The notes under the pieces were generated by a model, which saw only the letters and a program-made list of their open reading frames with translations, was not told the origin of the DNA and searched no databases. Shown here piece by piece: positions 1-63,966 of a stretch of 64,000 nt of DNA; the stretch's first letter is position 1; each line of letters starts with the position of its first letter. The stretch is from Alteromonadaceae bacterium (GTDB taxonomy: Bacteria > Pseudomonadota > Gammaproteobacteria > Enterobacterales > Alteromonadaceae), in contig JABSOJ010000012.1 in the NCBI GenBank assembly GCA_013216005.1, forward strand, positions 4,247 to 68,246. Direction: 5' to 3'. The position numbers and the translations under genes were made by a program.

Positions 1-148
1 TTGATTTACCACAACCCGACGGTCCTGAAATAGATACGTATTCTCCTGCACGTATCTCCAAATTAACACCACGCAAGGCATAAGTATCCACATCCTCCAT
101 TTCAAAAACTTTTTTGACGTCCTTTAACAGAATTTTAATATCACTCAT
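1..148 (-). CDS. ABC transporter ATP-binding protein, MacB/LolD-like, N-terminal fragment that runs off the left edge
   Basis: Manual translation of the reverse complement from ATG (146..148) gives MSDIKILLKDVKKVFEMEDVDTYALRGVNLEIRAGEYVSISGPSGCGKS. The Walker A motif GPSGCGKS is present. A GAGGT Shine-Dalgarno lies about 8 nt upstream. The gene starts 53 nt downstream of the NRPS stop on the same strand. It is absent from the ORF track only because fewer than 60 aa are visible. Confidence 0.6.
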   Translation of the reverse strand, partial: MSDIKILLKDVKKVFEMEDVDTYALRGVNLEIRAGEYVSISGPSGCGKS

Positions 149-201
149 AAGTTATACCTCAATATTATCGTTTAATAGGGGGATCATTTTTCAAAAGTGT
201 T

Positions 202-3200
202 TCATTTTTTTGACAGTGAACTATCAATAAACATCGCCAAAGATTCAACAAACGAATGTTGCATCAAGGTGAAATGGTTTGCTTGTACCAAAGTCACGCT
301 CAACTGCCCCAGCAATGATTGCCAACTACTTTCATCTTGTACCATTTTACCTTCTTCTGCCCTGATCAGCTCAACCATTCCATCGTATGGCGCTGGCTGA
401 TAGTTAGCCAACATACGATCGTTGTCAGTTAACTGTGCAAAACGGCTGGTCAGTTCTTCAACTGTCATATCATTTGGTAGGACCGACTGTTCAATACCCA
501 AATCAACCACCAATTTAAGTAATTGGGCTATGGGTTGTTGCAACTGCTCCTGCGCAAACTGACCGTAATCAATCCCAAGTTCAGCTACCATGATAGCCAG
601 CAACTGACGTTCTCTTTCTGTATCAGATAACGCATTATCGTCTAAATCAGCAGGATTATAGCTGTCAATCATTAATAGCACTTTAACTTCATCACCATTA
701 CCAACCACTTGTTGAGCCATTTCCAACGCGATAACGCCGCCCATCGACCAACCAGCCAAACAATAAGCCTGGCTGTTGTCATTCGCTTTAATCTCATTCA
801 AATATAATACAGCTGTCTGTTCAATACTCACCTCTGCATTTTCAGGCATGACTATACCAATCACCGCTCCCCGATATTTCATTGCACCGACAAGTGCGCT
901 GTAACACACCACTTGACCACCAACGGGATGAACCAAATACAAGGGAGGCAAATCTGATCGCGATGGTTTAAGTGTTATCAACAAACTGTTCTGCTCATAA
1001 TTCCCGGCATTACTCCTGGTATAAGTACCTGCTATTAAACGGGCCTGCTCAATTAACTGAGCAGACTGCCGGATAGTCTGTAATTGGTATAAATTATTCA
1101 TACTCAGTTGGCATGAAAAGTGTTGGTTAACCTGTTTAAGTAAGCGACTAATGAGTAATGAGTGACCACCTAAGCTGAAAAAATTAGCGGTGACACTGAT
1201 TGTTTCAGCGTCCAGACCAAGCAACAGCGCCCAAATTTGCGTTAATTCCTGCTCAGTTACCGTACCGGGTTTATCCAAATCACCGTCATCAACCACAGCT
1301 TCGATCAGTGGCAAAGCCTTTTTATCCACTTTACCGTTAGGTGTCAACGGCCAGCATTCTACAATCACAATGCTTGAAGGCACCATGTACTGCGGTAAAA
1401 CCTGTGCTAATTGTTGTTTAATTGCAGCAGCGCCTAAGCCCTGTTCCTGCTCACTAACAACATAGGCTATCAATTGTCTGTCAGCATGCTGACCCACTTC
1501 CCTGACCATAGCCATAGCATCCGTTACCCTTTGGCAAAGTACCAACTGACGTTCAATTTCCTTGAGTTCAATACGATAACCACGTAATTTAACCTGTTCA
1601 TCAATACGTCCGACAAAAACTAAATTACCGTCTGCCAAATAACGAACCAAATCACCGCTTCGGTATAACCTATCTGAAACATCATCTCCATACGGGTTGG
1701 CAATAAATTGCGTATCAGTCAATGTTTGTTTATTCAAGTAACCGTCACTAACAGCCCGACCACCAATATAAAGCTCTCCACAAACACCTTGCGGCACAGG
1801 ATGCTGATGTTCATCCAGCACCATTAAATAAGTGTTATCGATAGCGGTTCCTATAGGAACACTTGGCATAGTTTCATGGTAACCACTAACATCAAAACTG
1901 GAAGCGATTACGGTAGTTTCAGTTGGACCATAAGTATTGAACAATTGCACCGAAGCACCAACACATTCATCCCACACTTTCAAATGGCTATCTGACATAG
2001 CTTCACCTCCCATGATGAGCAAGCGCAAGTCACTATTTTGTACCTGTGACGCCAGATCTTCGTCGGTACAGAGCAAATGCCAATAGGCTGTCGGTACTGT
2101 CACTATGGAAATATTACTACTTTGCACCAGTTGCCAAAACTCAGCCCATGCCGGCAAACCAGAACCTGATTGCAGCACTAATGTAGCACCGCTCAGCAAG
2201 GATAAACTCAGTTCTTCAACAAAAATATCAAAAGAAATTGATGAAAACTGCAATACCTTATCCGCAGGGTTCATCCGGTACTCTTGTCTTATTCCTTCCA
2301 GATAAGCCATCCAATTCTGATGGCTGATCATCACCCCTTTTGGCTGACCTGTTGTGCCGGAAGTATAAATAACATAAGCAAGGTTTGAAGAAGCAGGTTG
2401 ACAATCCAAACAAGGTTCAACGGTTGGAAAACCAGCCATTTTTTTAACTATACTCGGTTCATCCAACGCAAACACCTTAATATCGTCAGGCAAATCCAAA
2501 GCATCCGTTAATGAGCTTTGAGTCAATAAGCATTTCAAGCCGCTATCTTCCACCATGTATTTCAACCGTGCTGATGGATAAGTCGGATCTAAAGGCACGT
2601 AGGCACAGCCTGCTTTCAAAATGGCCAATACTGCAACGATCATTTCAACCGAGCGCTCAACACTTAAACCGATAAAATCTCCTGCGACACAATTATTGTC
2701 AATCAGGTAGTGTGCCAATCTGTTGGCTTGGCTGTTCAATTGAGCATAGGTCAATTGCTGATCATCAAATACTAGAGCAATATTGTCTTGCCCCTTGTTG
2801 ACCTGGCTGAGAAATTGTTGATGCACCAAAGCAACCGAGCTCCTTCGTGGCGACAAATCATTGGCTGTACGTATCCAGCGACTTGCCTCTTTTTCCCCCA
2901 TGAAAGACAAATCTTTGATCGCAGCAGTGGGGGCTTTAGCTATGCCACTGAGCAATTGTAATAAATGACGGTTAAACTGCTCAACTTTATCTTTGTCAAA
3001 CAAGGCTTTGTCATATACCCACAAAAAATCTATACCATTGTCGGAAAAGCTTGCTGAGATATCCAAATCAAACTTAGCCACAACCGTGCTGCCGTCTTGC
3101 GCGGCTTGCCCGTCACTCAATGCAGATATCGCCAGCCCCGGCAGATTTATCCTCTCTTCGTTTTGTTCTTCCAAAGACAACATAATTTGGAACAATGGCG

Positions 3201-6200
3201 TATGACCTGTACTTCGACTTACCCTACAATGCTCGACCAATTGTTCAAAAGGCACATCCTGATTGGTCTGGGCATCGAGGTTAACTTGTCGAGCGCGAAG
3301 CAGTAATTCGGTAAAATCTGAAACTTGGGTGTCAAGACGCAGCACCAAAGTATTAACGAAAAAGCCAATCAATGGGTCCAGTTCCCGTTGTAACCGATTT
3401 GCGACAGCAGTGCCAACCACAATGTCTTGGCTATTGCTGTGGTAAGACAATAATAGTGACACAGCAGCATGTAAGACCATGAAGGGTGTTGCATTATGGC
3501 TTAAGGCCAATTCATTCAGCGCATCAGCTACCTGCTTGTTGGCTCTACCTGTTATTTGTCCGCCAATGTTTGCACTGGTTTGAGGACGTTGCCGATCTAA
3601 CGTTAAACTGTGAACGGCAGGCACCCCAGCCAGTTGGTTGGTCCAATAATCCAGTTGATGTTGCAACTGACCATCATTATGTCTTTCTTGTTGCCAATGA
3701 GCATAATCGGCATATTGTACTTTTAATGGTGGTAAACTAGCTAATTTTCCATCAACGAACCCCTGATAAAGTTGACAAAATTCGCTGAGCAATACTTTCA
3801 TCGACCAACCATCTGAGGCAATGTGGTGCATGTTAAATAGCAGCACGTATTCATCACTACGTAACCGCACGGTTGTAGCCCGTAACATCAAAGATTGGCT
3901 TAAGTCGAAAATATGATCTGCTTCATGAGCAAACAAAATCTTAACTTCAGCCATTTGATCAGGTTCACTCAACGCGCTCAAATCAATCCTTGTCAGTGTA
4001 AATCGGGCATCTTCAACAATCTGTTGATATTGACCTTCATCTTCATCTTTGAATACTGTGCGTAATGGCTCATGACGCTCAACAATATACTGGAATGCTT
4101 TCTCGGCCATATCTTCATCAAAAACACCGCTGAGTTTAAGAGCCCCTGGCATATTATAAAATGCGCTGCCGTTGCTGAGTTGATCGATAAACCACAATCT
4201 GCGCTGAGCAAATGAAGAAGACAAGCGTTGACCGCTTCTTTTTATCACTGTCACAGGAGCTCTGACGACCTTTCCTTGCTGCTGTTCAATTATCAGAGCC
4301 AGTTGACCTAATTGCCCATATTCAAAAATATCACGCACTGACAACTCAACATTCAATTGAACCCGTATCACGCCAATCAAGCGCACCGACAACAAGGAAT
4401 GACCTCCAAGTACAAAGAAATTAGTCTCGCGACCTATTATCGCTACATCTACATTAAGTAACTCGGCCCATAACTCAACCAGCGCTTTTTCAGTGGTCGT
4501 TTTCGGGGCAACATAAACCGTCTGTGATAACAAACTATCAGGTTTTGGTAATCCTTTTTTGTCAATTTTACCGTTAGTGGTCAAGGGCCATTCAGTCACT
4601 GTCAGCCAAACCGAAGGCAACATATAATCTGGCAAGTTTTCACTTAACAAAAGAGCCAGCGAAGAAGGTTCTACGGTTTCATGTTCTTTTTTAAACTGCA
4701 CATACGCAACCAGCTGCTTGATACCTTCTTGCGTATCAAGTGCCAACACCAAACAACTCAACACACTTTCAAGAGCAATGATTTGCTGCTCTATTTCACC
4801 CAATTCAATCCGGTAACCCTGCACCTTAACCTGATCATCCACACGACCTATAAACGCCAGTTCACCATTGGGCTGAAATCTGGCTAAATCACCACTTTTA
4901 TACAAACGACCACTGTCACCATTATCGAACGGATTAGCAATAAACTTCTCAGCCATCAGTTCGGGTCGGTTCAGATATCCCCGACTCACTCCTGCTCCGG
5001 CTATAACCAGTTCTCCCACCGAGCCAAATGGCACCAGCTGGTTATGTTCATCAACCAAATAAATCTGTGTATTTTGTAATGGCACACCAATAGGCGTTGC
5101 CTGTTCATCCGTGGGCGTTTTCGCACCAACAATATGACGGGTACTGAAAACAGTAGTTTCTGACGGACCATAACCATTCACAATGGTCAGCTCGCTGATC
5201 TGCTGTTTAATGGTTAACAGGGTTAATGAGGCAATAGGCTCTACCCCGACCAACAAGTGTACCAGTGGCAGGTCATTACGCTGTTGCACCCGTGCCACCA
5301 AATCGTTAACAAAAAACGGTGGCACATAGGCTTGCTGAATTTTGCGTTGCGCCATCCAGTCAAATAGAGCTTTACTGTCATGACGAATTGAATCGCCGGG
5401 GATGTTGAGTGTCGCACCAAAACACAGCGCAGAAAAGATTTCATAAACCGATACGTCAAAGCAATAGCTGGTCCACCACATCGCCTGATTGTTTGACACC
5501 GAAGGGCACAAACGTTCAAAGTCACTCAGCAGATTCACAACATTTCGATGTTCAACCATTACCCCTTTGGGTTGCCCCGTAGTACCCGAAGTATAAATAA
5601 CATAAGCTAGATCAGAGGCGCTATGTTGTGCTGCCACATTCGGCTGACAAGATATATCAACTAAAATTTCGGCAATATTGTCTAATTCAATACACTGAAC
5701 TGCCAATTCGTCAAACAGCGGGCTTAACGCCGACAGCGTGACAAGGTGAGTCATTTGGCTGTCATTCACAATATAGTGTAATCGCGCCTGCGGATACTCA
5801 GGGTCCATCGGCACATAAGCTGCACCGGTCTTGAGTATCGCAAGAATACTTACCACTGTTTCTATTGAACGTGGCTGTGCAATACCGACCAAAGCACCTC
5901 GACCCACTCCCTGCGCTTGCAGGTACTGTGCTAAGCGGTTTGATTGTTGTTCCAGAGCGCCATATGTTATTTCACGGTCATCCAACGTCACCGCAACCCC
6001 ATCAGTTCTTTTTTTTGCCTGAGCGCTAAACAAACAATCCAGTAATGCATCTTGAGGATATTCAACTCTGGTATTGTTTAACGTTTTCACTAAGTATTCA
6101 GTTTCAGTCTTGGTCAGCATCGGCAATTGCGCCAGACTTATGGTCGGATTATCTGCTACAGCAACCAATACTCTATACAAATGATCATCCAACTGCTCAA

Positions 6201-9200
6201 TAGTATCAGCATTGAACAAGCCTTGATCATAAGTCCAGGTCAACTGAATGCCGTTGTCTGAAATAACCGCATCAACCGCCAGTTCAAACTTAGCTAGCAC
6301 CTGATCACTTTCCATTGCCCGTATACTCAACCCATCAAGGATCATTTCCCCTTCATTTGAAGGTTTTTTATCAGTCGTAACGTCCAGAGTAATTTGAAAC
6401 AATGGAGTATGCTGGGTACTACGAGTTACACTCAGTTGTTCAACAAGCTGTTCAAACGGAAGATCCTGATTAGCCTGGGCATCGAGGTTAATTTGTTTAA
6501 TATGATCAAGAAATCCATCAAAAGTATCACTTACCGATGTGTTGCAACGTAATACGAGTGTATTAACGAAAAAACCGATTAATGGGTCTAGTGATTTTTG
6601 CAATCTGTTCGCCACTGGTGTGCCAATAATAATATCTTTGCTGTTACTATGTCTGGACAACACCAAACTTAACACACCATGCAACACCATAAAAGGAGTG
6701 ACACCCTGCCCCAACGCAAGTGACTGTATAGCATGGGCTGTCTGACCCGTTATTTTACGGCTCACTGTCGCCCCTTGATGACCCGGCACCGCAGGTCTTG
6801 GATTATCCAGCTCCAAACTGTGAACTACTGGTAAATCATCCAGCTGTGCCGTCCAATACGACAACTGCCCTTCGAGAACTTCACCTTGTAGATAATTTTG
6901 CTGCCACTGAGCATAATCAGCATACTGCACGCTTAAGGGCGGCAAATGAAATGGTTTATTTTTAACCAATGCTTCGTAAAGTTGATAAAACTCACGCACC
7001 AACACTTGCATTGACCAGCCGTCCGAAGCAATGTGGTGTATATTGAGCAGCAACACACCATCGTCCGGAGCAAGCCTTATAAAACTTACCCTCAGCATCA
7101 AGCTGGCACTTAAATCAAAAACATGACTCGCTTCTTTACCAAACAATGTTTTAACTTGTGTCATTTGTTCAACTTCGGGTAAACCACTCAAATCAAAACG
7201 GTTCAATCTAAAGTGAACACCATCGACAATATGCTGGTACTGACCTTCATCAGCATATTTAAACACCGTACGTAAAGGCTCGTGACGATCAACAATATAC
7301 TGAAAAACCTTTTCAGCTGCCGTTTGATTAAAAGATCCCTTAACCCGCATAGCCCCTGGCATATTATAAAACGCGCTGCCGCCGCTGAGTTGGTCAATAA
7401 ACCACAATCTGCGTTGGGCAAAAGAAGAGGGTAGCCGAGGTCCTGCTCGGTCAATAGCTGCCACGGGGGCTCTGACAGCACGCCCCTGCATCTGCTCAAC
7501 CAATGATGCAAGTTGATCCAATTGTGAAAATTCGAATATATCGCGTATCGACAGTTCTACCTTTAACACATCGCGCAATTCACCTATCAGACGAACAGAC
7601 AATAAAGAATGCCCACCTAATTCAAAAAAGTTAGCATTTGCACTGATTTGATCAGCGTCGAGTTTGAGCAATTCTGCCCAAATGTTCACCAACGAGTTTT
7701 CTGTTGCAGTTTTAGGCTCAATATACTCATGTTGAGATAAATGATGCTTTACCGGCGGTAACGCTTTTTTGTCAATTTTACCATTAGCTGTCAAAGGCCA
7801 TTCTTTGAGTTCCACAAAAGCAGCTGGCACCATATAGTCAGGTAAAGCTCTAGCCAGAACCGAACGTAAATCAGTGTCACTTATTTGGCGACTGATAATG
7901 ATATAAGCCACTAATTGTCGATCACCTTCATCTAAAGGTGCCGCAACCACCAAAGCCGACTCAACTTGTGGCAGTTTTATTAACTGTTGTTCAATTTCAC
8001 CCAATTCAATGCGGAAACCGCGAATTTTAACCTGATCATCGATCCGTCCAACATACGCCAGCATGCCGTCTGGCAGGTAACGGACAAAATCGCCGGTTTT
8101 GTACATTTTTAGCCCGCTTTGATCGGCAAACGTATCAGGTAAATAACGTTCATCGGTCTGCTCAGGTAAATTTTGATAACCTCGCGAGACACCGTCGCCA
8201 CTTACATAGAGTTCACCAACTGAACCTGGCGGCACCATAACTTTCATTTCATCTAACACATAACAGCGAGTATTGGTGACAGGGGTTCCGATTGGCGGTT
8301 GTTCCGCCAAAAGACCAGTAAAAATGGCATAGGTAGAATATGTTGTATCTTCAGACGGACCATAAAGATTCATCACCCGTAAATCAGCCCCTGATTCGAA
8401 CAATCGGTTAACCGTGATTTTAGGCAAAGGTTCACCTGCCAAATTAACCACTTTGGCTGACGAAATGTCGACCTTGCTATCAAGTAAGGCCTTAATACCG
8501 GAGGGAACAGTATTGATTAATGTCGGTTTTAAATTCGGTTTGTCCAACAAAGCCAGAATATTGTCTACCAGCAATAATCGCCCACCGACACTTAAAGGAA
8601 AGAAGATCTCAAAAACTGACAAATCAAAGTTTACCGATGTACTGGCTAAAATAGATTGATATTCTTCAGGTCTATATTCTGCAGCTGCCCATTGCAACAA
8701 CGCCATGGCATTACCATGCTCGATCAGTACCCCTTTAGGTACACCGGTTGAACCCGAGGTGTAAATAACATAGGCCAAATTTTGTTGGTTAATCTTATTT
8801 AACTCGAATAAATCACCTAAATTTGTATCATAGTGCTTCAAACTGGCATTGAACTGAGAATCATCCAAAATCACCAGTTCTGCATCCTGAGCGAGCAATC
8901 CTTGCTGTAATGATTGGTGAGTCAGGATCAAGTTTAAACCAGTATCGCCAACAATATAATCAATACGTAATTCTGGGTAATTAGGATCAAGTGGCACATA
9001 TACGCCACCAACTTTGAGAATAGCCATCATCGCAACAATCATATCTTCATTACGGAGGGTACAAAAACCAACAAATTGACCGACACTCACCCCTTTTTCA
9101 ATCAGATAATGAGACAACTGATTGGCTCTTTCATTTAATTGCCGATAAGTAAGATATCTCTCTTCATTTTCAACGGCAACGGCATCAGGTGTCCGCTCAG

Positions 9201-12200
9201 CTTGCCGTTCAAAAGCATGGTGTAAACAAGGCAACCTTGGGGCTTTATTTTCAGTTTGATTAACCGTAATTTTTAAATAGTGAATATCTTTCACAGTTAA
9301 CAACGGTAACTCATACAAACAAGCATTGGGGCTTGTGATAATACCATGCAACAAAATAAGCAAACGCTCAGACAATTTAACGATTGTGTCAACATTAAAC
9401 AAATCAGTATTGTAGTTAAAACTAAAATTAATGCCCTGGTCAGTTTCATTGGCATTGAGGGTTAAATCAAATTTGGCCATTTCACCTGATTCACTATTAA
9501 GACTCAAAGGTGACAGTGTCAAATCAAACAATTGTGAAGGTGTAACTTCATTGGTGTCCATACTAAACATGATCTGAAATAACGGCGTATGACTACGGCT
9601 TCGACTAGGACGGAGAATTTCAACCAATTGTTCAAAAGGAATATCCTGATGTAACTGAGCATCAAAATTGATATCTCTGACACGAGTCAAAAAATCCACA
9701 AAAGATAACTGCGGTTCGCACTTGGTCCGCAATACCAACGTATTAACAAAGAAACCGACTAATCCTTCCAGCTCAGGACATGTCCTATTTGCCACAGGAG
9801 TGCCGATCATAATGTCGTTATTTTCGCTGTGACGGGATAAAAGTATAGCAAAGGCACTGTGCAACAACATGAACAGGCTCGCATTATGTTGTCTCGCCAA
9901 CAAGTTAAGCCTAGTTGTCGCCGTATCGTCAAGTTTAAAAGCGAAAGAAGCACCATTGAAAGTCTGTTCAATAGGTCGTGTATGATCTAAAGGCAAACTA
10001 TGAACTTGCGGTGCATTGGCTAATTGCTCAGTCCAATACCGCAACTTGCGTTCCAGTACTTCACCTTGCAGATAATCCCGTTGCCAAGCAGAATAATCTG
10101 CATATTGAACAGTCAGCGGCGGCAATTGAATGACCTTTTTGTGGATCAAAGCCTGATATAACAAGCCAAATTCTCTGACCAAAACGCCCATAGACCAGCC
10201 ATCACTTGCAATATGATGCATGGTAAACAGCAATACACCTTCTTGTTCGCCAAGCTTAATAAATGCCCCGCGCAACATCAATTCACAAGATAAATCAAAC
10301 AATGCCGATGATTCTTTAACCACTTCACGCTGAACTCTTTCTTGTTGTTCATCGTCAGATAACCCTGTCAAATCAATACTGTTGAGTTGAAATTTAACGT
10401 CTTGCAATATTTTTTGGTATTTACCCTGATGCTCAGATTCAAACACCGTTCGCAGAGGTTCATGACGTTCAATCAATAATTGAAATACTGACCCGGCAAG
10501 GGCAACATCAAATGTGCCGGCAACCTGTAAAGCTACCGGCATATTATAAAATGCACTGCCACTGTTAAGTTGGTCAATAAACCACAAACGTTGTTGAGCG
10601 AAAGAGGTCAATAGCGGTTGATCATCCCGCGTTACTTTTAATATCGACCCGCCACCTTGCTGTACTTCACCCACTTGTATCGCTTTTGCTAATGCCGATA
10701 ATACTGAAAGCTCAAAAATATCCCGAACTTGCAGTTCAACATTATGTTGTTGCCGTATTGAACCTATCAAGCGCACGGCCAACAGCGAATGACCACCCAG
10801 AGCAAAAAAGTCTGCTGTCGCACTGATTTTGTCACTGTCAAGGTTGAGTAATTCAGCCCAAATTACCGCTAGTGCCAGTTCTGTATCTCCCTCAGGCGTG
10901 ATAAATTCACCTGCCAAATCTAGCATATCAGGTGCAGGCAAAAGTTTACGGTTAATTTTTCCGTTTGCACTGAGCGGCCATTTTTCCAATATAACAAAAG
11001 CTGCCGGAACCATGTATTGTGGTAGTGTTTGTTGCAGATGTTCTCTCATTGTAATAATCAATTGCTCTGCATCTGTCCCCTTTTGGTTCGGCACGGCGTA
11101 GGCTACCAACTGAGTTTGCAGCCCTTCGTTGCGGGCCATTACTAGTGCAGATTGTACCGCTGTAACCCCTGTCAATTGATTTTCTATCTCGCCTAGTTCA
11201 ATACGGAAACCTCGGATCTTGACCTGATGATCTATTCGACCAATGTATTCAATCTGACCATCGGTCATAAAACGAACCAAATCACCTGTTTTATACAAAC
11301 GATCAGTTAGCAACCCAGACAACGGATTTGCAATAAACTTTTCCCCCGTCAATTCTGATTGATTGAGGTATCCCCTGGCTAACCCGACACCACCGATGTG
11401 TAATTCTCCCACCACGCCAAATGGCACTAATTTATTATATTTGTCCAATATAACCAGCTGGATATTTTGTATTGGTTTGCCGATAGGCACGGTATGCAGA
11501 ACAGACTCAGGTTGACATTGCCAGAAACTGACATCAATAGATGCTTCAGTTGGACCATACAAATTATGCAACAACGCATTGCAGCCACTGGCAAAAAAAG
11601 CATCCTGCAAATCTTTGGGTAAGGCCTCGCCACTACAGAAAACTTGCCTGACCGATCTGCAACTTGACCAGTCGCTACCAAGCAGCATCATATTGAGCAT
11701 TGACGGCACAAAATGCAACGTGGTAACACCTTGTTGTTGAATCAACTGTGATAAATATTGCGGTTCTTTGTGACCCTCAGGTTTTGCTATCACCATTCTT
11801 GCACCGTATAGCAAGGGCCAGATAAATTCCCATACCGACACGTCAAAACTGTAAGGTGTTTTTTGCAACACAACATCTTCAGCGGTCAATTGATATTCCC
11901 TTTGCATCCAGTCAACACGGTTTACTAAACCCTGATGAATACAAACAACCCCTTTAGGTTCTCCTGTAGAACCGGAAGTGTAGATAACATAGGCACTAGA
12001 AAGCGATGAAACCTTGTCACGATTAATATTATCTGCCGGTCTTTGTTGTAATTGAGCATCAAAGTGTTGATCGTCCTGACAATACTGTTTGATATGATTT
12101 TTCTGGCAAAATTCAGCTAAAATAGCCTGTAATGAGGTTTGAGTTAACACCACACTGGGCTTGCTCGCATTAAGCATTTTTTCAAGCCTTGCAGTCGGCA

Positions 12201-38015: not shown

Positions 38016-38026
38016 TGTTATTCCCG

Positions 38027-46744: not shown

Positions 46745-46780
46745 AATATAGTCACCTGCAAATAAACGTTTAAAAAACAA

Positions 46781-47833: not shown

Positions 47834-47859
47834 AGCTAATTCCTTAAAAGGTAAATAGG

Positions 47860-56019: not shown

Positions 56020-56081
56020 TGATAAATCCTAAGAACTAAGTTCACGAATATTCAGGAACTTATGTCTAGTCAATTACATTA

Positions 56082-57413
56082 TTATTTAACGCTTTTTTGA
56101 AAACTATAAACTGAACCCAAATCCATAATTTGAGTCAATTCATCCAAGGCAGTCCAAGATTCTCTGGCCAACAAGGGATCTTGCAAATCGACCGGAGCTA
56201 GTTTGTCTCTAAAATGTTTTTCAACCCAACTGGTCAGCCGTTTATATAACGATTCAGATAACAATGTGCTGGGATTTACTCCCGTTAACGCATTTTCATC
56301 CATCACCATCCTAAACCTCAAACAAGCAGGTCCTCCGCCATTAGCCATGCTTTGATTTAGGTCAACAAACAACAGTTGGTTAATAGGATTGTCTCGGCTA
56401 ACCACTTCCTGAAGGTAATGATAAACATTGTCGTTTTCACGACACTCAACGGGTAAAATCAACGTCATTGAACCGTCAGGTAATGAAATCAATTGAGAAT
56501 TAAACACATAGGTACTGAGCGCTTCACCGAGAGTGACCTCACTTTCAAGTGCTTTGATCAGATGAAAAGGAGTGTCCTGACCCATCATTTGGTGAATCTG
56601 GTCTAATACCGCGTCACTATTTATGAATGCTTTTTCATGATAAAACATTACATTACGGTTATTCACAGAGATCACATCATTATGAAAAACCCCCTCTTCT
56701 ATCGCTTCAGGGTTTTGTTCAATAAACAGGGTTTTGTTGGCATCTAACAGGTGTAATCTGGAAATTGACTTGGAAGCAGCCAACGTTTGTCGCGCTATGC
56801 TCTTGGTTTCGCGACCCCGGCGTCCGTAAACAAAAACCTCTATGGCTTTTTCATGGTATTGCTGACATATGCGCAAATGGTTGGCGGCACCTTCATCCCC
56901 CAAAAAGGCTACCGCTGGTAGGGCTTTATGATGGACGAAATAATGCGGATCACGAAAAATCAACTTAAGAAATTCGCCACTGGCATTGGTTTCTAAAGAA
57001 CGATGGAACTGGCTGGAAAGATTGGCCGGTGTCACATGAATTTTTCCGTCAGCAGTATCAGAGGCCGGAGAAATAGTAGCTGAATTTGCCGTCCACATGG
57101 CTGATGAAGAATAACATGACCTAAAAACTCTCGGGCTTTCAACAGATGCTTTTGCAATCAAGACTTCGTCTGTGCCACTAAATCCCAGATCACGTAGCGT
57201 ATTCAGGTCAGGTCTTTCCTGAGGCGGAAAAACCCCTTGAACTAAACCCAAATCATGCATGAGTTTCATTTTTTTTAATCCTTGCAATGCAGCCAATTTG
57301 GGATTAGAAATACTATTTTTGTTGGAGTAAGAGGCAACGTTACCGCTACCCAACCCCGAATAGTTATAGCTTGGACCAACCAATCCATCAAAATTAACTT
57401 CTGTCATCCGCAT
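56082..57413 (-). CDS. astB: N-succinylarginine dihydrolase family protein (AstB-like guanidino-group hydrolase)
   Basis: The 443-aa product aligns end to end with my recollection of E. coli AstB: EVNFDGLVG, GDEGAANH, GVFHNDVI, SMANGGGPACLR (catalytic Cys context) and LGSVY near the C-terminus. It is co-oriented with the FAAL-NRPS start, 62 nt upstream of it. Confidence 0.9.
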   Translation of the reverse strand: MRMTEVNFDGLVGPSYNYSGLGSGNVASYSNKNSISNPKLAALQGLKKMKLMHDLGLVQGVFPPQERPDLNTLRDLGFSGTDEVLIAKASVESPRVFRSCYSSSAMWTANSATISPASDTADGKIHVTPANLSSQFHRSLETNASGEFLKLIFRDPHYFVHHKALPAVAFLGDEGAANHLRICQQYHEKAIEVFVYGRRGRETKSIARQTLAASKSISRLHLLDANKTLFIEQNPEAIEEGVFHNDVISVNNRNVMFYHEKAFINSDAVLDQIHQMMGQDTPFHLIKALESEVTLGEALSTYVFNSQLISLPDGSMTLILPVECRENDNVYHYLQEVVSRDNPINQLLFVDLNQSMANGGGPACLRFRMVMDENALTGVNPSTLLSESLYKRLTSWVEKHFRDKLAPVDLQDPLLARESWTALDELTQIMDLGSVYSFQKSVK

Positions 57414-57444
57414 AACATTTAGTTCCTACCGTTACTTACCACAG

Positions 57445-57507
57445 TGTTAGCAAAAACCTATTGGCACTACAACAAATTTCATTTTATTCTTCACAGTTTT
57501 GCTAACA
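57445..57507. promoter_or_regulatory. 11-bp inverted repeat pair TGTTAGCAAAA (57445..57455) / TTTTGCTAACA (57497..57507) in the divergent intergenic region
   Basis: Read directly. The arms are perfect reverse complements separated by 41 bp, and both are preceded by CACAG. They lie 32-94 bp upstream of the astB-like start. No function has been demonstrated. Confidence 0.25.
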
Positions 57508-57585
57508 GTACCAATCCTTTACCTAACTTAGCCTATCAACCTACACTTCAATAAAACAAAGGTATCCAGAGTTTATGATGTTGAA

Positions 57586-57600
57586 TATTCCAATGGAATA
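57586..57600. promoter_or_regulatory. Perfect 7-1-7 palindrome TATTCCA-A-TGGAATA, a candidate operator
   Basis: Read directly. It lies 136 bp upstream of the acylase GTG and 173 bp upstream of the astB-like ATG. Confidence 0.25.
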
Positions 57601-57735
57601 ATAGTCCAAATTCGTGACAATTCTATTTTTTATAATAAAAAAAACCTTTTGTGCTAATTCCAACTTTTCTGGCGAATCTCAGGATCGCTGCTAAACTTCT
57701 GGACCAGCAATCAAGAGCTTTAGAGAGAATTTATC

Positions 57736-60216
57736 GTGTTTAAAACATCCCCCTTTATGAAGCGAACATTGATATTTATAGGTATCCCCATACTTGTTTC
57801 AATAGCCGTAGCCATCAAATATGTATATGGCAGTTTGAAAGTTGAGTCCGTCTATGTGGTCAAAAAAGGTCTGCAAGGTTTAGACAAAATCGTGCAAGTT
57901 ACTCGTGATGACAAGGGAGCCTTGTTCATCAAAGGTGAAACGGATAAAGATGTTTATTTTGCTTTAGGTTTTGCCCATGCTCAGGATCGAATGTGGCAGC
58001 TTGAATTACAACGCAGAATAGCCAAAGGTACTCTAAGTGAAATTTTCGGTCGCGAATCACTCAATAGGGATATTTGGATGCGTACCCTAGGGCTGGCTGA
58101 AGCGGCTAAATCAGCTTGGACGGCGATTAGCCCACAAACTAAATCTGCCTTGACCGCCTATACCAATGGGATTAACGCCTGGCTTGAATCCAACCCTGCG
58201 TTGTCACCTGAATTTATGCTGCTTGAAAACAAACCGGAACCTTGGACCGAACTGGATTCACTCTCATGGATGAAAGTATTCTCATTAAACCTCGCCGCCA
58301 ACATGTGGAACGAACTAGCCAATATGGCCGCTGGTCAATCGCTAACCCAAGAACAAGCTGCCGATATTCTCAAAACATACCCTGAAACAGGTCCCGTAAC
58401 TATACCCAATACTACAGCCAACCAGCTACCGCAACCAGATAAAAATAAACGTTTAGAAAAGGCACAACATATTGTTGCCCAACTGTTTAAAATTAAGCAA
58501 TCGATGGAAAAAGAACTGGCTATCGGCGGCAAATATGTTGGTAGTAATGCTTGGGTGGTTTCCGGTAAACTGACTGACAATGGTCAGCCAATTCTGGCTA
58601 ACGACCCTCATATGGGCATCCAAATCCCGGCCCTTTTTTATTTTGCTTCACTCAAGGGGGATAAACTCGATGTATCAGGCATGACGCTAGTCGGATTACC
58701 TGTGGTGATATTTGGTCGCAATAAAGACATAACTTGGGGCGGCACCAATATGTTTGCCGATACTCAAGACTTGTATTTTGAACAAACCAATGGCGAAAAT
58801 GCTGCCGAATATCGCGTTGGTGACCAATGGGAAAAGTTCGACACCCACAAAGAGATTATCCATGTTAAAGCACCCTTTCCCCAGTTTTTACGACCCAAAC
58901 TAAAACCTGTCGAGATTCAAGTACGTAAAACCCATAACGGTCCTGTTGTTTCAGACGCAAGTGGAATGTTCGACCAACCCATCTCACTAAAATGGACGGC
59001 ATTGGAAGATAACGATACAACACTTGAAGGTTTTTACCGACTTGGTTATGCAACCGACTGGAATAGCTTTAAAGCAGCCATGAAATACCATGTGGCGCCT
59101 GCATTAAACATGCTTTATGCCGACACAAATAACAACATCGGATTTTTGGGGATTGGTAAGATACCGGTGCGAAGTCTGGGTGAAGGTCAATTCCCTACTG
59201 TTGCCTGGAATGGTCTAAACAAGTGGACAGGTTACATTCCTTTTGATCAATGGCCATACAGTTATAATCCGGATCAGGGATATCTGGTATCGGCAAACAA
59301 CAAAAATGTTAATTCCGACTACCCCTATTTCATTTCACATGACTGGGCTCCATCGACACGAGCCGAGCGTATTGAGCAGCTATTAACCGCACCAGATGCA
59401 GTATTGAATATTGAATATATGAAAAAAATACAAGCCGATACCTTTGATATCAGTGCCACCAAACTGCATAAAACACTATCCGCATACAAACCACAAGATG
59501 AACGTCAAACCGAGGCGATTAATTTGATAAAGGTCTGGAATTTGGATATGGCCATTGACCAATCTGCAGCAAGCATATTTTACGTATGGACAAGACACCT
59601 TCGCACCCACCTGTTTTCAGATGAATTAACAAGTTCCTGGAACCAAAAATCGCAAGTAATTATTTTCGATAATTTTATTGCCGAGGTCTCTTATGATCAA
59701 ATCAACAAAGTCTTGACCGACACAACTCCTAACTGGTGTGACGATGTTAATACTGACATAACAGAGAGCTGCGAAACGGTCTTGTCGAACTCATTGAACG
59801 ACGCACTTAATGAATTGGATCGGTTTGGAGGGTCAGATATGGACGACTGGCAATGGGGTGGGCTACATATAGCAGTATACCGCCACACCCCTTTTAGCGG
59901 TCAGAACCTACTTGACAAGATGTTCGAACGACGAATCGCTAATGGAGGATCACCTAACACCGTCAATTCCGCCAGTGCCTACTACAACAAAACAGAAGGC
60001 TATGAACAGGGATCAGGCGCCACGTTCAGACAAATTGTACAGATGAACAAGAAAAAAACGCGACACTTATATATGAATTCCACAGGTCAGTCTGGACATT
60101 TTCTGAGCCCTTATTATGACAATATGATAGAGCCTTTTCAAAATGTCCATTATTTTGAAGCTGGCGAATTGAAGCCCGGTACAACCACCGACACCTATAA
60201 ACTTAAACCGGAATAA
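57736..60216 (+). CDS. Penicillin-amidase-family Ntn hydrolase (QuiP/PvdQ/aculeacin-acylase-like N-acyl amidase), membrane-anchored or secreted
   Basis: The 826-aa product has an N-terminal hydrophobic helix (RTLIFIGIPILVSIAVAI). It carries YFALGFAHAQDRMWQLELQRR, typical of the family. The autoproteolytic junction G|SNAWVVSG places the nucleophile at Ser270 (58543..58545), followed by ANDPHMG. The start is GTG with a purine-rich AGAGAGA upstream. Confidence 0.9.
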   Translation: MFKTSPFMKRTLIFIGIPILVSIAVAIKYVYGSLKVESVYVVKKGLQGLDKIVQVTRDDKGALFIKGETDKDVYFALGFAHAQDRMWQLELQRRIAKGTLSEIFGRESLNRDIWMRTLGLAEAAKSAWTAISPQTKSALTAYTNGINAWLESNPALSPEFMLLENKPEPWTELDSLSWMKVFSLNLAANMWNELANMAAGQSLTQEQAADILKTYPETGPVTIPNTTANQLPQPDKNKRLEKAQHIVAQLFKIKQSMEKELAIGGKYVGSNAWVVSGKLTDNGQPILANDPHMGIQIPALFYFASLKGDKLDVSGMTLVGLPVVIFGRNKDITWGGTNMFADTQDLYFEQTNGENAAEYRVGDQWEKFDTHKEIIHVKAPFPQFLRPKLKPVEIQVRKTHNGPVVSDASGMFDQPISLKWTALEDNDTTLEGFYRLGYATDWNSFKAAMKYHVAPALNMLYADTNNNIGFLGIGKIPVRSLGEGQFPTVAWNGLNKWTGYIPFDQWPYSYNPDQGYLVSANNKNVNSDYPYFISHDWAPSTRAERIEQLLTAPDAVLNIEYMKKIQADTFDISATKLHKTLSAYKPQDERQTEAINLIKVWNLDMAIDQSAASIFYVWTRHLRTHLFSDELTSSWNQKSQVIIFDNFIAEVSYDQINKVLTDTTPNWCDDVNTDITESCETVLSNSLNDALNELDRFGGSDMDDWQWGGLHIAVYRHTPFSGQNLLDKMFERRIANGGSPNTVNSASAYYNKTEGYEQGSGATFRQIVQMNKKKTRHLYMNSTGQSGHFLSPYYDNMIEPFQNVHYFEAGELKPGTTTDTYKLKPE

Positions 60217-60235
60217 TGTAAGGGACCTAAACAAC

Positions 60236-61930
60236 ATGAAATTATTTGGTACATTTACTGAATTTGCACCCAACAAAGTGTTTTTGTCCATTACCATAGG
60301 AGCCATGGCTGGTATTTGTTATGCCATGTTAATTCCAATAGTGATCAGCAGTTTACCTACAGAGGTTGGTGCACTGGTCAATGCAACCAGTGACACTGAA
60401 AGTTTTCTGTTTTTTGATGTTAGTCGCTATAAATTTGCCTCGGTGTTTTTTATCTGCTGCCTGGGGATTTTAACAACCCAAACATTATCACAAATCCTGC
60501 TGGTACAAGTTGGTATGGACGTTACCACTGATCTGCGAGTACGTATTTACAAGCGTATCAGCAAGGCACCAATAGCAGATTTGGAAAGACTTGGCTCTGC
60601 CAAATTGATGGCCACCATTACCACAGATGTTAACCGGGTGGTCATGGGAGCAAAAACCCTGCCTGACCTGCTAATATCAGGGGTAAGTTTGATGGGAATA
60701 TTGAGTTATTTGCTGTATTTAAATGTTGAAGTGTTTTTTTATGCGATTGGTGCAATTCTGTTCGGTTCAATCACATACATGATCCCCATGTACATCGGTA
60801 GTTTGTACTTTAGACGTGGCAGAGACAGTATCGACAAACTGCACGAGGCAATAAGAGGGCTGATTCATGGAACCAAAGAGCTGAAACTCAACAAGGCTAA
60901 ACGTACTGCCTATTTTGAAGACCATTTATTAAAACATGAATATTCGGTTTTGAGCAATGAAAAACGGGGGAGTATCATAGTAACCACCGCGATTAACTAC
61001 GGTGATTTAATCAGCTTTTTCGTTATCGGTTTTGTTGCGTTTATATTTATAAGCTACAACAGCATGGCCAACGACAAGTTGGCCGCTGTGATCATGGCAC
61101 TGTTATACTTATCTACACCTGTTGCTAAAATACTCAATGCGTTACCACAAATATCCGTGGCCAATATTTCCTTAGCAGCAATCAATAATATTTTTAACAG
61201 TTTACCGGAAGAAAAAGCCAATGAAGAATTAATTGAGCAAAAAAACTGGCAAACATTAAGTCTCCGAGGCATTGAATACCACTACGAAGATGCCAACAGT
61301 ACTTTTAACCTTGGTCCTCTGGATTTTGATATTCACAAAGGTGAAGTTACCTTTATCATTGGCGGCAATGGTTCTGGCAAATCAACACTCAGTAAAATTA
61401 TTTCTTTGTATTACCAACCAACTCATGGCGATATCTATTTCGGTCCCAACCGCGTGACGGACGAATCGCTCAACAGTTGCCGGGAATATATTTCAGCCAT
61501 ATTTACCGATTATTATCTATTTAACAGCATATTGGGTGAGTTTAGCGAAGAAGACCAGATACAACTGGACAAATTTATGAAAGAGCTGGCTCTAGACACC
61601 AAAGTAACCGTTAAAGACGGTGAATTCTCAACAATATCCTTATCAGATGGTCAAAAGAAACGTTTGGCGTTACTGGTATCATACATTGAAAACAGGGACA
61701 TGTATTTGTTTGACGAATGGGCCGCGGATCAAGATCCAATGTTTAAAGAGACCTTCTATCATCAAATTTTGCCCAAACTTAAAGCTCAGGGCAAAGCGGT
61801 ACTTGTTATAAGCCACGATGACCGTTATTTTGATATTGCAGATCGGGTTATCACCCTTGAAGAAGGTAAAATCAAATCGATTATGAACAACAAAGGCGAA
61901 CACCTAACAATACTGGAAAATGTGGTATAG
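60236..61930 (+). CDS. ABC exporter, fused TMD-NBD, cyclic-peptide transporter type (SyrD/PvdE/YojI-like)
   Basis: The 564-aa product has hydrophobic N-terminal TM segments. Walker A is GGNGSGKST, the signature is LSDGQKKRLAL, and Walker B has the family-typical LFDEWAADQDP. It starts 19 nt after the acylase stop. Confidence 0.9.
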   Translation: MKLFGTFTEFAPNKVFLSITIGAMAGICYAMLIPIVISSLPTEVGALVNATSDTESFLFFDVSRYKFASVFFICCLGILTTQTLSQILLVQVGMDVTTDLRVRIYKRISKAPIADLERLGSAKLMATITTDVNRVVMGAKTLPDLLISGVSLMGILSYLLYLNVEVFFYAIGAILFGSITYMIPMYIGSLYFRRGRDSIDKLHEAIRGLIHGTKELKLNKAKRTAYFEDHLLKHEYSVLSNEKRGSIIVTTAINYGDLISFFVIGFVAFIFISYNSMANDKLAAVIMALLYLSTPVAKILNALPQISVANISLAAINNIFNSLPEEKANEELIEQKNWQTLSLRGIEYHYEDANSTFNLGPLDFDIHKGEVTFIIGGNGSGKSTLSKIISLYYQPTHGDIYFGPNRVTDESLNSCREYISAIFTDYYLFNSILGEFSEEDQIQLDKFMKELALDTKVTVKDGEFSTISLSDGQKKRLALLVSYIENRDMYLFDEWAADQDPMFKETFYHQILPKLKAQGKAVLVISHDDRYFDIADRVITLEEGKIKSIMNNKGEHLTILENVV

Positions 61931-61949
61931 CAAACGAGGGGTTTAAATT

Positions 61950-63197
61950 TTGGACGTTAAAAGAAACAAATCATCGAAAAACACACCGAAGTGGCAAAAA
62001 GCACTCATTATCGCTGCCGTATGTCTGGGCGTGTTAAGTTACTGGAAAATGAGTAACAATGAGAGCACGTCGTTACGAATGAATGATATATTGTTAAGCA
62101 AAGTGAGAAAAGGTGATCTGGCTGTTGAAGTCACAGGTTACGGAAGTTTACAGTCCAAAGTTCAACAATTGATCACAACCCAGACACCTGCAACCATCGA
62201 AAAGATCATTTTAAAACCTGGTGCAGTGGTTACCCCTGATAAAGTGATCATGATCTTGAATAACCCGGAACTAAATCAAGAAGTAGAAAAGACCCGCCTT
62301 GAGCTTGCACAAGTCAAGGCCAACCTGAGAAAACTCAGGAGTAACCAAAAACGTGAGTTACTAAATGAAAAAGAAAACTTTCAGGAAATCCGTTCGCAAT
62401 ACGAAGGAGCCAAACTAACATTGAATGCAGAATTGCAAATGTCTAAGTTTGGTATCACATCTGCAATTAAAGTAAAAAAAGCACAACTGTTAGAAAAACA
62501 ATTGTCTCAACGGATCAATATCCTTAAAGAAAAATCCGTTCAGTTGGATATAATCCATCAAGAAGATGCCAATATAGAATTGGAAGCCATTAAACTCAAA
62601 CAAATTGAGTTAGACAATATAAGTGCCCGGCTGGATCGGTTAATCGTTAAGGCAAGAATTGAAGGTGTGTTACAAAGCCTTTCTGTTGAATTAGGTCAAA
62701 GTGTTATCCGCGGACAAACTCTGGCGATGGTAGGCAGTACCAAAGAACTGATCGCCATGATCAAAGTATCTCAGGGGCAAGCACAAAAAATACAACCCGG
62801 TCAAAAAGCAATTATTGATACCCGTACCAGTAAAATTGAAGGTATAGTTGCCAGAGTCGACCCTACGGTTGTGAACAACACGGTAAATGTTGAGATTAAC
62901 CTACCGAAAAATCTGAGTGCAGATGCCCGACCACAACTAAATGTAGACGGCACTATTGTGATCCAGAGTCTCAAAAATATCTATTACATAGAAAAACCGA
63001 CCAATGCAGCCGAAGGGCGTAACAGCAGCTTGTTTAAACTCAACGACTCACTGGACGGTGCAGAAGCGGTAGCCGTTAAGTTTGGTGTTATATCTGGTCG
63101 CTATATTCAGTTAGTTTCACCGTCAAGCGAAAATGATACATATATAATTTCAGATACCAGCGCTATTTTGACCAATAGCGTTGATATTTCTCAGTAA
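61950..63197 (+). CDS. Efflux periplasmic adaptor (HlyD/MacA-type membrane fusion protein)
   Basis: The 415-aa product has one N-terminal TM segment (ALIIAAVCLGVLSYW), a long coiled-coil segment (residues ~110-240), then beta-barrel-like repeats. The start is TTG with GAGGGG 8 nt upstream. Confidence 0.85.
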   Translation: MDVKRNKSSKNTPKWQKALIIAAVCLGVLSYWKMSNNESTSLRMNDILLSKVRKGDLAVEVTGYGSLQSKVQQLITTQTPATIEKIILKPGAVVTPDKVIMILNNPELNQEVEKTRLELAQVKANLRKLRSNQKRELLNEKENFQEIRSQYEGAKLTLNAELQMSKFGITSAIKVKKAQLLEKQLSQRINILKEKSVQLDIIHQEDANIELEAIKLKQIELDNISARLDRLIVKARIEGVLQSLSVELGQSVIRGQTLAMVGSTKELIAMIKVSQGQAQKIQPGQKAIIDTRTSKIEGIVARVDPTVVNNTVNVEINLPKNLSADARPQLNVDGTIVIQSLKNIYYIEKPTNAAEGRNSSLFKLNDSLDGAEAVAVKFGVISGRYIQLVSPSSENDTYIISDTSAILTNSVDISQ

Positions 63198-63219
63198 TTA
63201 AAGACACAGACTAATTAAT

Positions 63220-63966
63220 ATGAACAAATGGTTTATCATCCCAAAACCAAATAGAAACGCCGAATTAAGATTATTCTGTTTTCCCTATGCGGGCGGTAGT
63301 TCTACAACTTATTTACCTTGGGTAAATGATTTACCTGATAATGTAGAACTCATTATTGTTCAACCGCCAGGACGAAATAACAGAATGTTTGAACCAATGC
63401 ATTCGAATATGACTGACTTAGTTAACGAATTAATACCTATTATTCCAAGACTACTAAATAAACCTTATATTTTTTTCGGTCATAGTTTAGGCAGTAGAAT
63501 AGCATTCGAACTATTGACTCAGTTACAAATGCTTAACCATCCACTACCACAGCATTTTATTGCCTCAGGTAGCAGGGGAGCACAAGTTCCATCTACCAAA
63601 AAACCAACTCATCATCTACCCCATGATGAATTTATTGCCGAACTTCAAGATTTGAATGGCACACCGCAAGCTGTTTTAGAAAATCAAGAATTGACGGAAT
63701 TATTTCTTCCTTTACTCAGAGCTGATTTCAAAATATCCGAAACATACTGTTATTCAGGAAAAATGATTTTGGACTGTAAAATATCTGTATTAAGTGGGGA
63801 AGATGATATTGACATTACTTTAGCTAACCTACAAAGCTGGGGGGATTTATTTACCGAAGAGGTCGAAATACATTATTTGTCTGGAGGTCACTTTTTTATA
63901 GAAAGTCATCGCGAAAATGTTCTAGAAATAGTAAATAGTATTATTGCTAAATATTGGAGAGCATAA
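63220..63966 (+). CDS. Type II (editing) thioesterase
   Basis: The 248-aa product has the LRLFCFPYAGGS N-terminus, the GHSLGS nucleophile elbow and a C-terminal GGHFF. All three are hallmarks of GrsT/PvdG-type TEII. Confidence 0.9.
   Translation: MNKWFIIPKPNRNAELRLFCFPYAGGSSTTYLPWVNDLPDNVELIIVQPPGRNNRMFEPMHSNMTDLVNELIPIIPRLLNKPYIFFGHSLGSRIAFELLTQLQMLNHPLPQHFIASGSRGAQVPSTKKPTHHLPHDEFIAELQDLNGTPQAVLENQELTELFLPLLRADFKISETYCYSGKMILDCKISVLSGEDDIDITLANLQSWGDLFTEEVEIHYLSGGHFFIESHRENVLEIVNSIIAKYWRA

Follow-up and report, generated by a model that had tools for sequence, protein, structure and literature searches.

An intact FAAL-primed NRPS/PKS gene cluster of a marine Alteromonadaceae bacterium and a predicted route to its lipopeptide product

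Background

The locus studied here raises the question of what a long lipopeptide assembly line makes and how its product is finished and exported. It lies on a stretch of 64,000 nucleotides from an uncultured marine Alteromonadaceae bacterium (GenBank assembly GCA_013216005.1, contig JABSOJ010000012.1, positions 4,247 to 68,246 of the forward strand), and this whole stretch is called the window. The window carries seven genes, g1 to g7, that encode non-ribosomal peptide synthetases (NRPS) and one polyketide synthase (PKS) module. They are preceded by astB and by a divergent operon for an acylase, an ABC exporter, a periplasmic adaptor, and a type II thioesterase (TEII). We propose that the cluster is probably a functional hybrid NRPS/PKS assembly line primed by a FAAL (fatty acyl-AMP ligase), together with a route by which an acylated product is matured. 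What the acylase acts on, how the chain is released, and what the product does for the cell are inferred.

Results and discussion

The assembly line is complete

A scan for open reading frames (ORFs) found 12 ORFs of at least 150 aa, eight of them co-directional on the minus strand and four on the plus strand, and together they occupy nearly the whole window. The initial annotation of this DNA had described about 18,500 aa of intact megasynthase in seven co-directional genes; g1 to g7, on the minus strand between 202 and 56019, sum to 18,549 aa and are spaced by 26, 0, 11, -1, 118, and -4 nt. The cluster measures about 56 kb and every long ORF is uninterrupted. Domains were called by Pfam scans and by profiles built from the window's own domains (Table 1). 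The inventory comprises 13 AMP-binding domains (one FAAL and 12 adenylation (A) domains), 17 domains of the condensation (C) superfamily, 14 carrier domains, one KS-AT-KR-ACP module, one terminal thioesterase (TE), and two TauD domains, one free and one fused to the C-terminus of g3. Thus, the FAAL start, the 12 A domains, the single PKS module, the TE, and the epimerization (E) domains after modules 1, 5, and 7 were all recovered as first described, and the profile-based calls match the earlier domain string. That list had the main anatomy and lacked two dead C-like domains and the embedded astB.

Residues 1-600 of g1 match FAAL models (PRK05850, 8e-115; FadD32, 2e-111) and the PvdL-type model PRK05691 (E 1e-133), in each case below the curated cut-off. 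In the same protein they are followed by an ACP at residues 623-679 and by a starter C domain at 708-1140 with the motif HHITIDF. Each of the 12 A domains is followed by a thiolation (T) domain with GG(H/D/N)S, so that the carrier serines are intact, and so is the TE motif GWSMG. The KS keeps its catalytic motifs NTACSTS, HGTGT, and NIGH, the AT is malonyl-type by its motifs GHSIG and KAFH, the KR has GGLGGMG and YGAAN, and the ACP of the PKS module has GGDS. In an alignment of all 17 C-superfamily domains the three E domains share the motif HHxxxDGxSW and 29-37% mutual identity, and each precedes a C domain that falls in a separate DCL-like cluster. The remaining members are the starter C, the LCL-like C domains, the divergent C5, and the two dead C-like domains. 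C5 (g5, 33493-34677), the acceptor of the predicted hydroxy-Asn donor, has PHSISDG in place of HHxxxDG. No elongation C domain of the cluster diverges more: its identity to the others is at most 23%. Its weak grouping is with the DCL-type domains, even though module 4 is without an E domain.

From this anatomy the following biosynthesis may be proposed. The FAAL would adenylate a fatty acid and load it onto the first ACP, the starter C would join the acyl group to residue 1, and E1 would epimerize that residue. The chain would next be extended by eleven more NRPS modules and by the single KS-AT(malonyl)-KR-ACP module, and the TE would free it by macrolactonization or hydrolysis.

Table 1. Positions of genes and domains in the window and of related loci
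Feature	Position	Strand	Length (aa)	Domains or match
ABC ATPase start	1-150	-		N-terminal 49 codons, cut by window edge
g7	202-14064	-	4620	docking domain, four C-A-T modules (A9-A12), TE
g7 TE	217-945	-
g6	14061-17540	-	1159	TubC_N-type docking domain, C8 (DCL-type), A8, T8
g5	17659-34854	-	5731	C-A5-T-E-C-A6-T-KS-AT-KR-ACP-C-A7-T-E, C-terminal docking tail
g5 E7	17755-19068	-
g5 ACP	22342-22512	-
g5 KR	22771-23367	-
g5 AT	24478-25263	-
g5 KS	25699-26841	-
g4	34854-38015	-	1053	C-like-A4-T4
g4 A4	35259-36734	-
g4 C-like	36792-37994	-
g3	38027-46780	-	2917	C-like-A2-T2-C3-A3-T3-C4-TauD
g3 fused TauD	38054-38935	-
g3 C4	39125-40402	-
g3 A3	40745-42154	-
g3 A2	43904-45364	-
g3 C-like	45473-46726	-
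g2	46781-47833	-	350	free-standing TauD/TfdA Fe(II)/2-oxoglutarate dioxygenase, Pfam TauD 2.5e-29
g1	47860-56019	-	2719	FAAL-ACP-C-A1-T1-E1-C
g1 C for module 2 (DCL-type)	47968-49245	-
g1 E1	49378-50658	-
g1 A1	51004-52494	-
g1 starter C	52600-53898	-
g1 ACP	53983-54153	-
g1 FAAL	54280-55950	-
astB	56082-57413	-	443	N-succinylarginine dihydrolase, Pfam AstB 1.3e-187
Acylase	57736-60216	+	826	Pfam Penicil_amidase 1.3e-205, residues 53-808
Exporter	60236-61930	+		ABC transporter for cyclic-peptide export (SyrD/PvdE/YojI family), permease fused to ATPase
Adaptor	61950-63197	+		HlyD-family periplasmic adaptor (MacA-like membrane fusion protein), Pfam HlyD_3, HlyD_D23
TEII	63220-63966	+	248	Pfam Thioesterase 1.3e-41, GHSLG
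P. piscicida homologous cluster	CP031759.1, ~4.06-4.09 Mb; CP021646.1; JBBLYV010000006.1
astB in L002	933-2384
astB in L090	453-1784

Two TauD hydroxylases and two dead C-like domains

Two oxygenases had been thought to serve residues 2 and 4, and the positions of the TauD domains support such an arrangement. The free TauD gene g2 stands between g1, which ends in a C domain, and g3, which begins with a C-like domain, A2, and T. Similarly, g3 ends in a C domain and the fused TauD, and g4 begins with a C-like domain, A4, and T. The g2 protein has the metal and 2-oxoglutarate motifs HNE...HGR; it is 28% identical to the fused TauD of g3 and HxE...H/R is kept in both. The fused TauD is 44% identical to the fused TauDs of the soil metagenome loci L023 and L028, where C-TauD is likewise followed by a C-like domain, an A domain with an Asn-like code, and T. 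The same layout after C-TauD, with the code DLTKIGEVCK, was found in L015, L023, and L028.

In the C-like domains before A2 and A4 the active-site motif HHxxxDG is lost (HPLFADN and PSIFADH, respectively), and the latter gave weak matches to solved C domains. Since HHxxxDG is reduced to its Asp in all of their counterparts, which come from Pseudoalteromonas piscicida, the JGI metagenome locus L093, Cellvibrio, and two soil loci, we read the two as putative interface-type (I) domains. Each would present a TauD to its module in a split layout, C or C-TauD on one protein and I-A-T on the next, and the carrier-bound residues 2 and 4 would be beta-hydroxylated by the g2 TauD and by the TauD fused to g3, respectively. 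The hydroxylation itself and the assignment of each TauD to a residue, including that of g2 to the residue loaded by A2, are inferred. The second arrangement, C-TauD followed by a C-like domain, A, and T, has been published for lipid siderophores; the potashchelin line, for example, reads FAAL-ACP-C-TauD-C-A(Asp)-PCP (PMC7100376). There is no Asp- or His-specific code in the modules served by TauD in the window, A4 being DLTKVGEVGK and A2 DPENIGAVTK. What is new here is that the putative interface-type domains would serve an Asn-type module and, with low confidence, a Lys/Arg-like one, and not Asp.

Adenylation codes and the predicted peptide

Stachelhaus codes were extracted by alignment to GrsA-PheA, and the control code DAWTIAAICK was recovered (Table 2). 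The substrate names given there follow published codes.

Table 2. Adenylation-domain codes and the residues we take them to specify
Domain	Gene	Code	Presumed residue
A1	g1	DVFAVAMVYK
A2	g3	DPENIGAVTK
A3	g3	DILQLGMIWK	Gly
A4	g4	DLTKVGEVGK (Glu at position 322)	Asn-type
A5	g5	DAYFLGVTYK	Val/Ile
A6	g5	DAWTVAAVCK	Phe
A7	g5	DVWHFSLIDK	Ser
A8	g6	DILQLGMVWK	Gly
A9	g7	DVWHFSLIDK	Ser
A10	g7	DLFNNALTYK	Ala
A11	g7	DVYYLGGVFK	small aliphatic-like
A12	g7	DIETIGTVIK

The codes of A2 and A12 share the pattern D-x-E-x-I-G-x-V-x-K of Lys-type pockets, and because of this we guess, with low confidence, that both substrates are basic (Lys/Arg-like). At the A1 position the relatives described below have Thr-type codes (DFWSVGMVHK in the metagenome contig L002, DVWSVGMVHK in P. 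piscicida, DFWNIGMVHK in Cellvibrio), and therefore A1 of the window looks like a degenerate Thr pocket from which the polar contacts are gone. Read colinearly, the domain calls and codes reproduce the peptide string first suggested, with its Asx sharpened to Asn: the predicted product is acyl-D-X1-(OH)X2-Gly-(OH)Asn-D-Val/Ile-[Phe+C2, beta-OH]-D-Ser-Gly-Ser-Ala-X11-X12. The bracketed unit is predicted to be 4-amino-3-hydroxy-5-phenylpentanoate. Gamma-amino-beta-hydroxy acids of the statine type are made by NRPS/PKS lines for pepstatin/ahpatinin, the thalassospiramides, and the didemnins. The arrangement there, an amino-acid module and then KS-AT(malonyl)-KR-ACP within an NRPS protein, is that of the window, whereas an N-acylated 12-mer and a gammaproteobacterial host are unlike them.

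The cluster belongs to a family found in cultured bacteria

The initial annotation had called the cluster orphan, a term that is too strong. In a protein homology search the g2 TauD had homologues with 73% identity in P. piscicida and 74% in a JGI metagenome, and the proteins P0194 (P. piscicida) and P0193, 73-74% identical to g2, both lie between a g1-like and a g3-like gene. Three P. piscicida genomes have astB, the g1-like gene, TauD, the g3-like gene ending in C-TauD, and the g4-like gene in collinear order. The comparison covered 10 kb on either side of the TauD gene, up to the start of g4. Over this region the head of the P. piscicida cluster is like that of the window, FAAL-ACP-C-A-T-E-C, free TauD, I-A-T-C-A-T-C-TauD, I-A-..., with a Gly-type A3, dead interface domains, and an A2 code identical to DPENIGAVTK. 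Its A1 is Thr-type, in contrast to DVFAVAMVYK in the window. The g1 and g3 proteins are 42% identical to those of the window over their full length, a level at which the two lines need not make the same peptide. Looser relatives, with a head of FAAL-NRPS plus TauD, are present in Cellvibrio mixtus (NHNI01000001.1), whose A2 code is DPENIGAITK, and on a second JGI contig, and L002 carries the acylase, astB, and a g1-like gene whose product is 62% identical to g1. Judged from sequence, then, the window cluster is a diverged member of a family found in cultured bacteria. The L002 scaffold has an N-gap within its A1 domain, and its first 200 positions read as an inverted duplication of the acylase N-terminus, with the identical peptide on both strands, probably through an error of assembly.

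A search for homologues of g4 had suggested that there are no relatives. Besides g4's own 100% entry it returned nothing above 36% identity, the full-length matches being 23-32% identical, and a scan of a genome collection with g4 gave a single match, a spurious one in Prevotellaceae. This was a false negative that the TauD search overturned. The g4 query missed the P. piscicida homologue in a word-prefiltered search and the short TauD query recovered it, because the interface domain evolves fast (those of the relatives are 19-28% identical among themselves) and generic NRPS motifs saturate the word prefilter. Megasynthase queries are therefore unreliable for finding related clusters. Two known products were considered and set aside: the bromoalterochromides of P. 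piscicida are short depsipeptides from a different, characterized cluster, and no Teredinibacter protein is among the closest TauD or g4 matches, as turnercyclamycin would call for.

Acylase, exporter, and other accessory genes

The acylase has a hydrophobic N-terminus, which is a signal or an anchor, and its predicted beta-chain nucleophile is Ser270 (G-S/NAW), the residue from which the beta chains of Protein Data Bank structures align. It had been likened to the acylase of pyoverdine synthesis. That it is an N-terminal nucleophile (Ntn) hydrolase is borne out, but it is not PvdQ-like by sequence: it scores 61.7 bits on the PvdQ model NF051460, where the cut-off is 950 bits, and aligns to PvdQ structures with E 1.5e-7. 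Among solved structures the Cupriavidus D-succinylase comes closest (7EBY/7EA4, aligned over the full length with E 3.6e-66). This enzyme acts on N-succinyl-D-amino acids and is enantioselective for N-acyl-D-amino acids (PMC11241749). Such kinship fits, without proving, the removal of the acyl group from a D-configured residue 1. Delipidation of FAAL-primed peptides by a cluster-encoded acylase has been established in experiments for PvdQ, PdnM, and CcsQ (PMC13592322; bioRxiv 10.64898/2026.07.24.740629).

The exporter gene begins 19 nt after the acylase gene, and its product scores 375.2 bits on TIGR01194 (cyclic peptide export), above the cut-off of 286.2. The adaptor has an N-terminal transmembrane segment and its NCBIfam adaptor matches are all below cut-off. 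At the other end of the window, 51 nt downstream of g7, is the start of an ABC ATPase, MSDIKILLKDVKKVF..GPSGCGKS (Walker A), which is probably a partner of the MacB/LolD type; pairs of MacB ATPase and permease occur in the related loci L095, L096, L028, and L012. The source contig extends about 4.3 kb past window position 1. We propose that the SyrD/PvdE-family exporter and the MacAB-like pump would carry the lipopeptide out of the cytoplasm, and that the periplasm-facing acylase, of the penicillin-acylase/D-succinylase branch, would there remove or edit the N-acyl group on D-residue 1.

A metagenome scan with the acylase as query retrieved 80 loci. In 20 of them an NRPS gene and an exporter lie beside the acylase, and these are concentrated among its closest relatives (mostly 42-49% identity). 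The exporter is usually directly downstream of the acylase, and the neighbourhood of the pair often includes TauD, TEII, a MacB permease, a membrane fusion protein, and a CmlA-type hydroxylase. The pair is also present in Microbulbifer epialgicus and on plasmid pAMDE1 of Alteromonas mediterranea. In these and in soil loci (L010-L028) the acylase gene stands directly upstream of a TIGR01194-type exporter, as in the window, and the acylases are 41-49% identical to that of the window. There, however, the pair is co-directional with the NRPS genes and embedded between them, whereas in the window it forms a divergent operon, and the NRPS content differs. The pAMDE1 locus (positions 153629-195866 of this conjugative 303-kb plasmid of strain DE1) is an NRPS cluster in which an acylase of 41.5% identity is followed by the cyclic-peptide ABC exporter, along with TauD, cupin, MbtH, and thioesterase genes. 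The mixture of accessory genes singled out at first is thus present in the window, but since its acylase-exporter core recurs in other NRPS clusters it is not peculiar to this one.

The astB gene

The window AstB is canonical. It scores 606 bits on TIGR03241 (cut-off 538), its alignment to E. coli AstB (1YNF) is full-length, and the active-site stretches GVFHNDVI and NGGGPACLR (Cys, His) are kept. Its gene is 62 nt upstream of g1 and co-directional with it, and the acylase operon is on its other flank. No terminator-like site was found in the 62-nt gap, a promoter and terminator scan around astB showed no excess over the shuffled expectation, and no other ast genes are in the window. This neighbourhood is repeated in L002, where AstB has 74% identity to that of the window, and in P. 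piscicida, where it has 51%. In L093 the slot is taken by a transposase, and in C. mixtus (L094, 350-1705) and L095 by a gene for a secreted Amidohydro_1 protein. The best named relatives of AstB are in Alteromonadales and Oceanospirillales at about 55% identity. Since the P. piscicida copy is no nearer to the window AstB than are those of other Alteromonadales (about 55%), and since the astB of Rheinheimera is solitary and adjoins topA, it is likelier that astB is a trapped housekeeping neighbour than that it tailors a guanidino residue.

What the product may do

Several observations count against a functional line with the proposed maturation route. For the whole cluster, the link from genes to product is drawn from sequence. 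The KR is without the LDD motif, and its stereochemistry is not typeable. The codes of A1, A2, A11, and A12 had no match in a literature search for these strings, and the interface-domain assignment is based on motif loss and position and not on a curated model. The 64-kb window encodes no MbtH (a motif scan also gave no matches), phosphopantetheinyl transferase, regulator, or TonB-dependent receptor. As for the acylase, its closest solved relative uses N-succinyl-D-amino acids and not long acyl chains, and a role in self-protection, recycling, or quorum quenching would suit it just as well.

The last point bears on a possible, though doubtful, alternative, namely, that the product is cationic, a lipo(depsi)peptide that retains its acyl group and acts on membranes or the envelope as an antibiotic or surfactant, with the acylase acting in resistance, turnover, or quorum quenching. 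Three D-residues and the two Lys/Arg-like codes, A2 and A12, would suit such a molecule, as would the TE, the SyrD-type exporter, and the MacAB-like parts, and a beta-hydroxy residue near the N-terminus could act as the nucleophile in lactonization. Moreover, the relatives hold several beta-hydroxylases (two TauD and a CmlA-type enzyme), like the clusters for multi-hydroxylated lipodepsipeptide antibiotics. However, the basic-residue assignment is weak, and the closeness of the acylase gene to the exporter gene, a position that is usually kept, is easier to square with an obligatory step than with an optional one.

An iron-chelating role is on the whole unlikely. In this case the product would be an amphiphilic siderophore delipidated in the periplasm after export, by analogy with pyoverdine, cyanochelin C, and pandorachelin, and its beta-hydroxy residues would help to bind Fe(III). 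The clusters for the lipopeptide siderophores cupriachelin, taiwachelin, potashchelin, pandorachelin, and the cyanochelins are like the window in having the FAAL-ACP-C start, free and C-fused TauD, a C-like domain before the A domain of the hydroxylated residue, and a TE, and several encode a delipidating acylase. Likewise, the FAAL start, TauD with interface-type domains, the PvdL-like FAAL match, the cyclic-peptide ABC exporter, and a cluster-encoded acylase are hallmarks of acylated beta-hydroxy-Asp siderophore clusters. The window shares with the pyoverdine system (PvdL/PvdE/PvdQ) an acyl-AMP ligase nearest to the PvdL-type PRK05691, at a score below its cut-off, an exporter of the TIGR01194 family, and an Ntn acylase that is secreted. 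Furthermore, P. piscicida, which bears the homologous head, is a reported producer of a chelator: strain SWA4_PA4 makes the iron-chelating lipopeptide pseudoalteropeptide A (Ueoka 2021, as cited in PMC10458718). This compound is a candidate product of the P. piscicida cluster and so of the cluster family.

The modules of the window that would be hydroxylated are Asn-type and, with low confidence, Lys/Arg-like, unlike the Asp modules of the known siderophore lines, and the line is longer (12 residues) with an extra PKS module. Neither a catechol, hydroxamate, or diazeniumdiolate pathway nor any other route to a chelator is encoded in the 64-kb window, and its 12 ORFs include no TonB-dependent receptor and no gene for siderophore uptake. 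In contrast to pyoverdine clusters the window also lacks PvdP, PvdO, and the Glu-Tyr-Dab chromophore modules, and its acylase lies off the PvdQ branch. The related soil and Microbulbifer loci have a CmlA-type hydroxylase and MacB and, in the stretches seen, no receptor. Finally, lipopeptide antibiotic clusters that contain TauD, for example that of turnercyclamycin, are known false positives of metallophore rules (PMC12971057).

A bolder proposal, which we consider distinctly unlikely, is that the family extends hydroxylation by TauD and interface domains past Asp and His, to Asn and to the Lys/Arg-like residue loaded by the strictly conserved DPENIGA(V/I)TK pocket, and combines it with D-specific N-deacylation by the Ntn acylase of D-succinylase type and with remodelling of guanidino or amide groups by AstB. 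In the Cellvibrio-type relatives AstB would then be replaced by the secreted amidohydrolase at the same position. If true, this would be a maturation route undescribed for lipopeptides.

By analogy with prodrugs, the product could instead be an inhibitor of aspartic or metallo-proteases that acts through its statine-like unit, with an N-acyl-D-residue cap cut on export by a D-specific acylase, and this is very unlikely. The in-line A(Phe)-T-KS-AT-KR-ACP, which would yield 4-amino-3-hydroxy-5-phenylpentanoate, the E domain of module 1, and the enantioselectivity of the acylase's nearest solved relative for N-acyl-D-amino acids all agree with it. On the other hand, the known N-acyl-D-Asn prodrug systems use ClbP-type peptidases and not Ntn acylases.

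The integrity of the sequence itself has to be considered as well. The same contig was obtained in two independent assemblies (ENA ERZ23488275 scaffold_80, 68,374 bp, sample label BOEU19-1_SAMN09765683; Logan SRR7648341_1662, 68,130 bp), and therefore it is not one assembler's chimera; both copies were reached through g6 and the ABC gene. Run SRR7648341 is used in marine metagenome surveys; a study of marine diatom-diazotroph symbioses (PMC8831587) lists it under data availability, and it probably belongs to the sinking-particle series of Station ALOHA. The ENA assembly (L006) has the last NRPS gene called as a fragment of 2971 aa, and in the Logan assembly (L005) and in the window this gene is an intact 4620-aa ORF. 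Exact look-ups of the window g7 and AstB in public sequences gave no match; therefore, the window differs slightly from both public versions. An Rfam scan of the whole window gave no matches. Although this metagenomic origin, the fragment, and the failed look-ups could be taken as signs of an assembly artefact or of a decaying cluster without a product, either reading is highly improbable given the agreement of the two assemblies, the seven uninterrupted ORFs with all checked catalytic motifs intact, the uniform composition (G+C 0.40-0.45 across the window), and the gene order common to the cultured relatives.

Conclusions

The window is a complete and intact blueprint for an undescribed lipopeptide of about 1.4-1.7 kDa from an uncultured marine bacterium. 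Since the head of the cluster is conserved in the culturable P. piscicida and C. mixtus, the chemistry at residue 2, the interface domains, and the acylase are testable without the uncultured producer. The pair of acylase and cyclic-peptide exporter is a widespread cassette, and thus the route in which a peptide is made in acylated form, exported, and then deacylated may be common well beyond pyoverdine.

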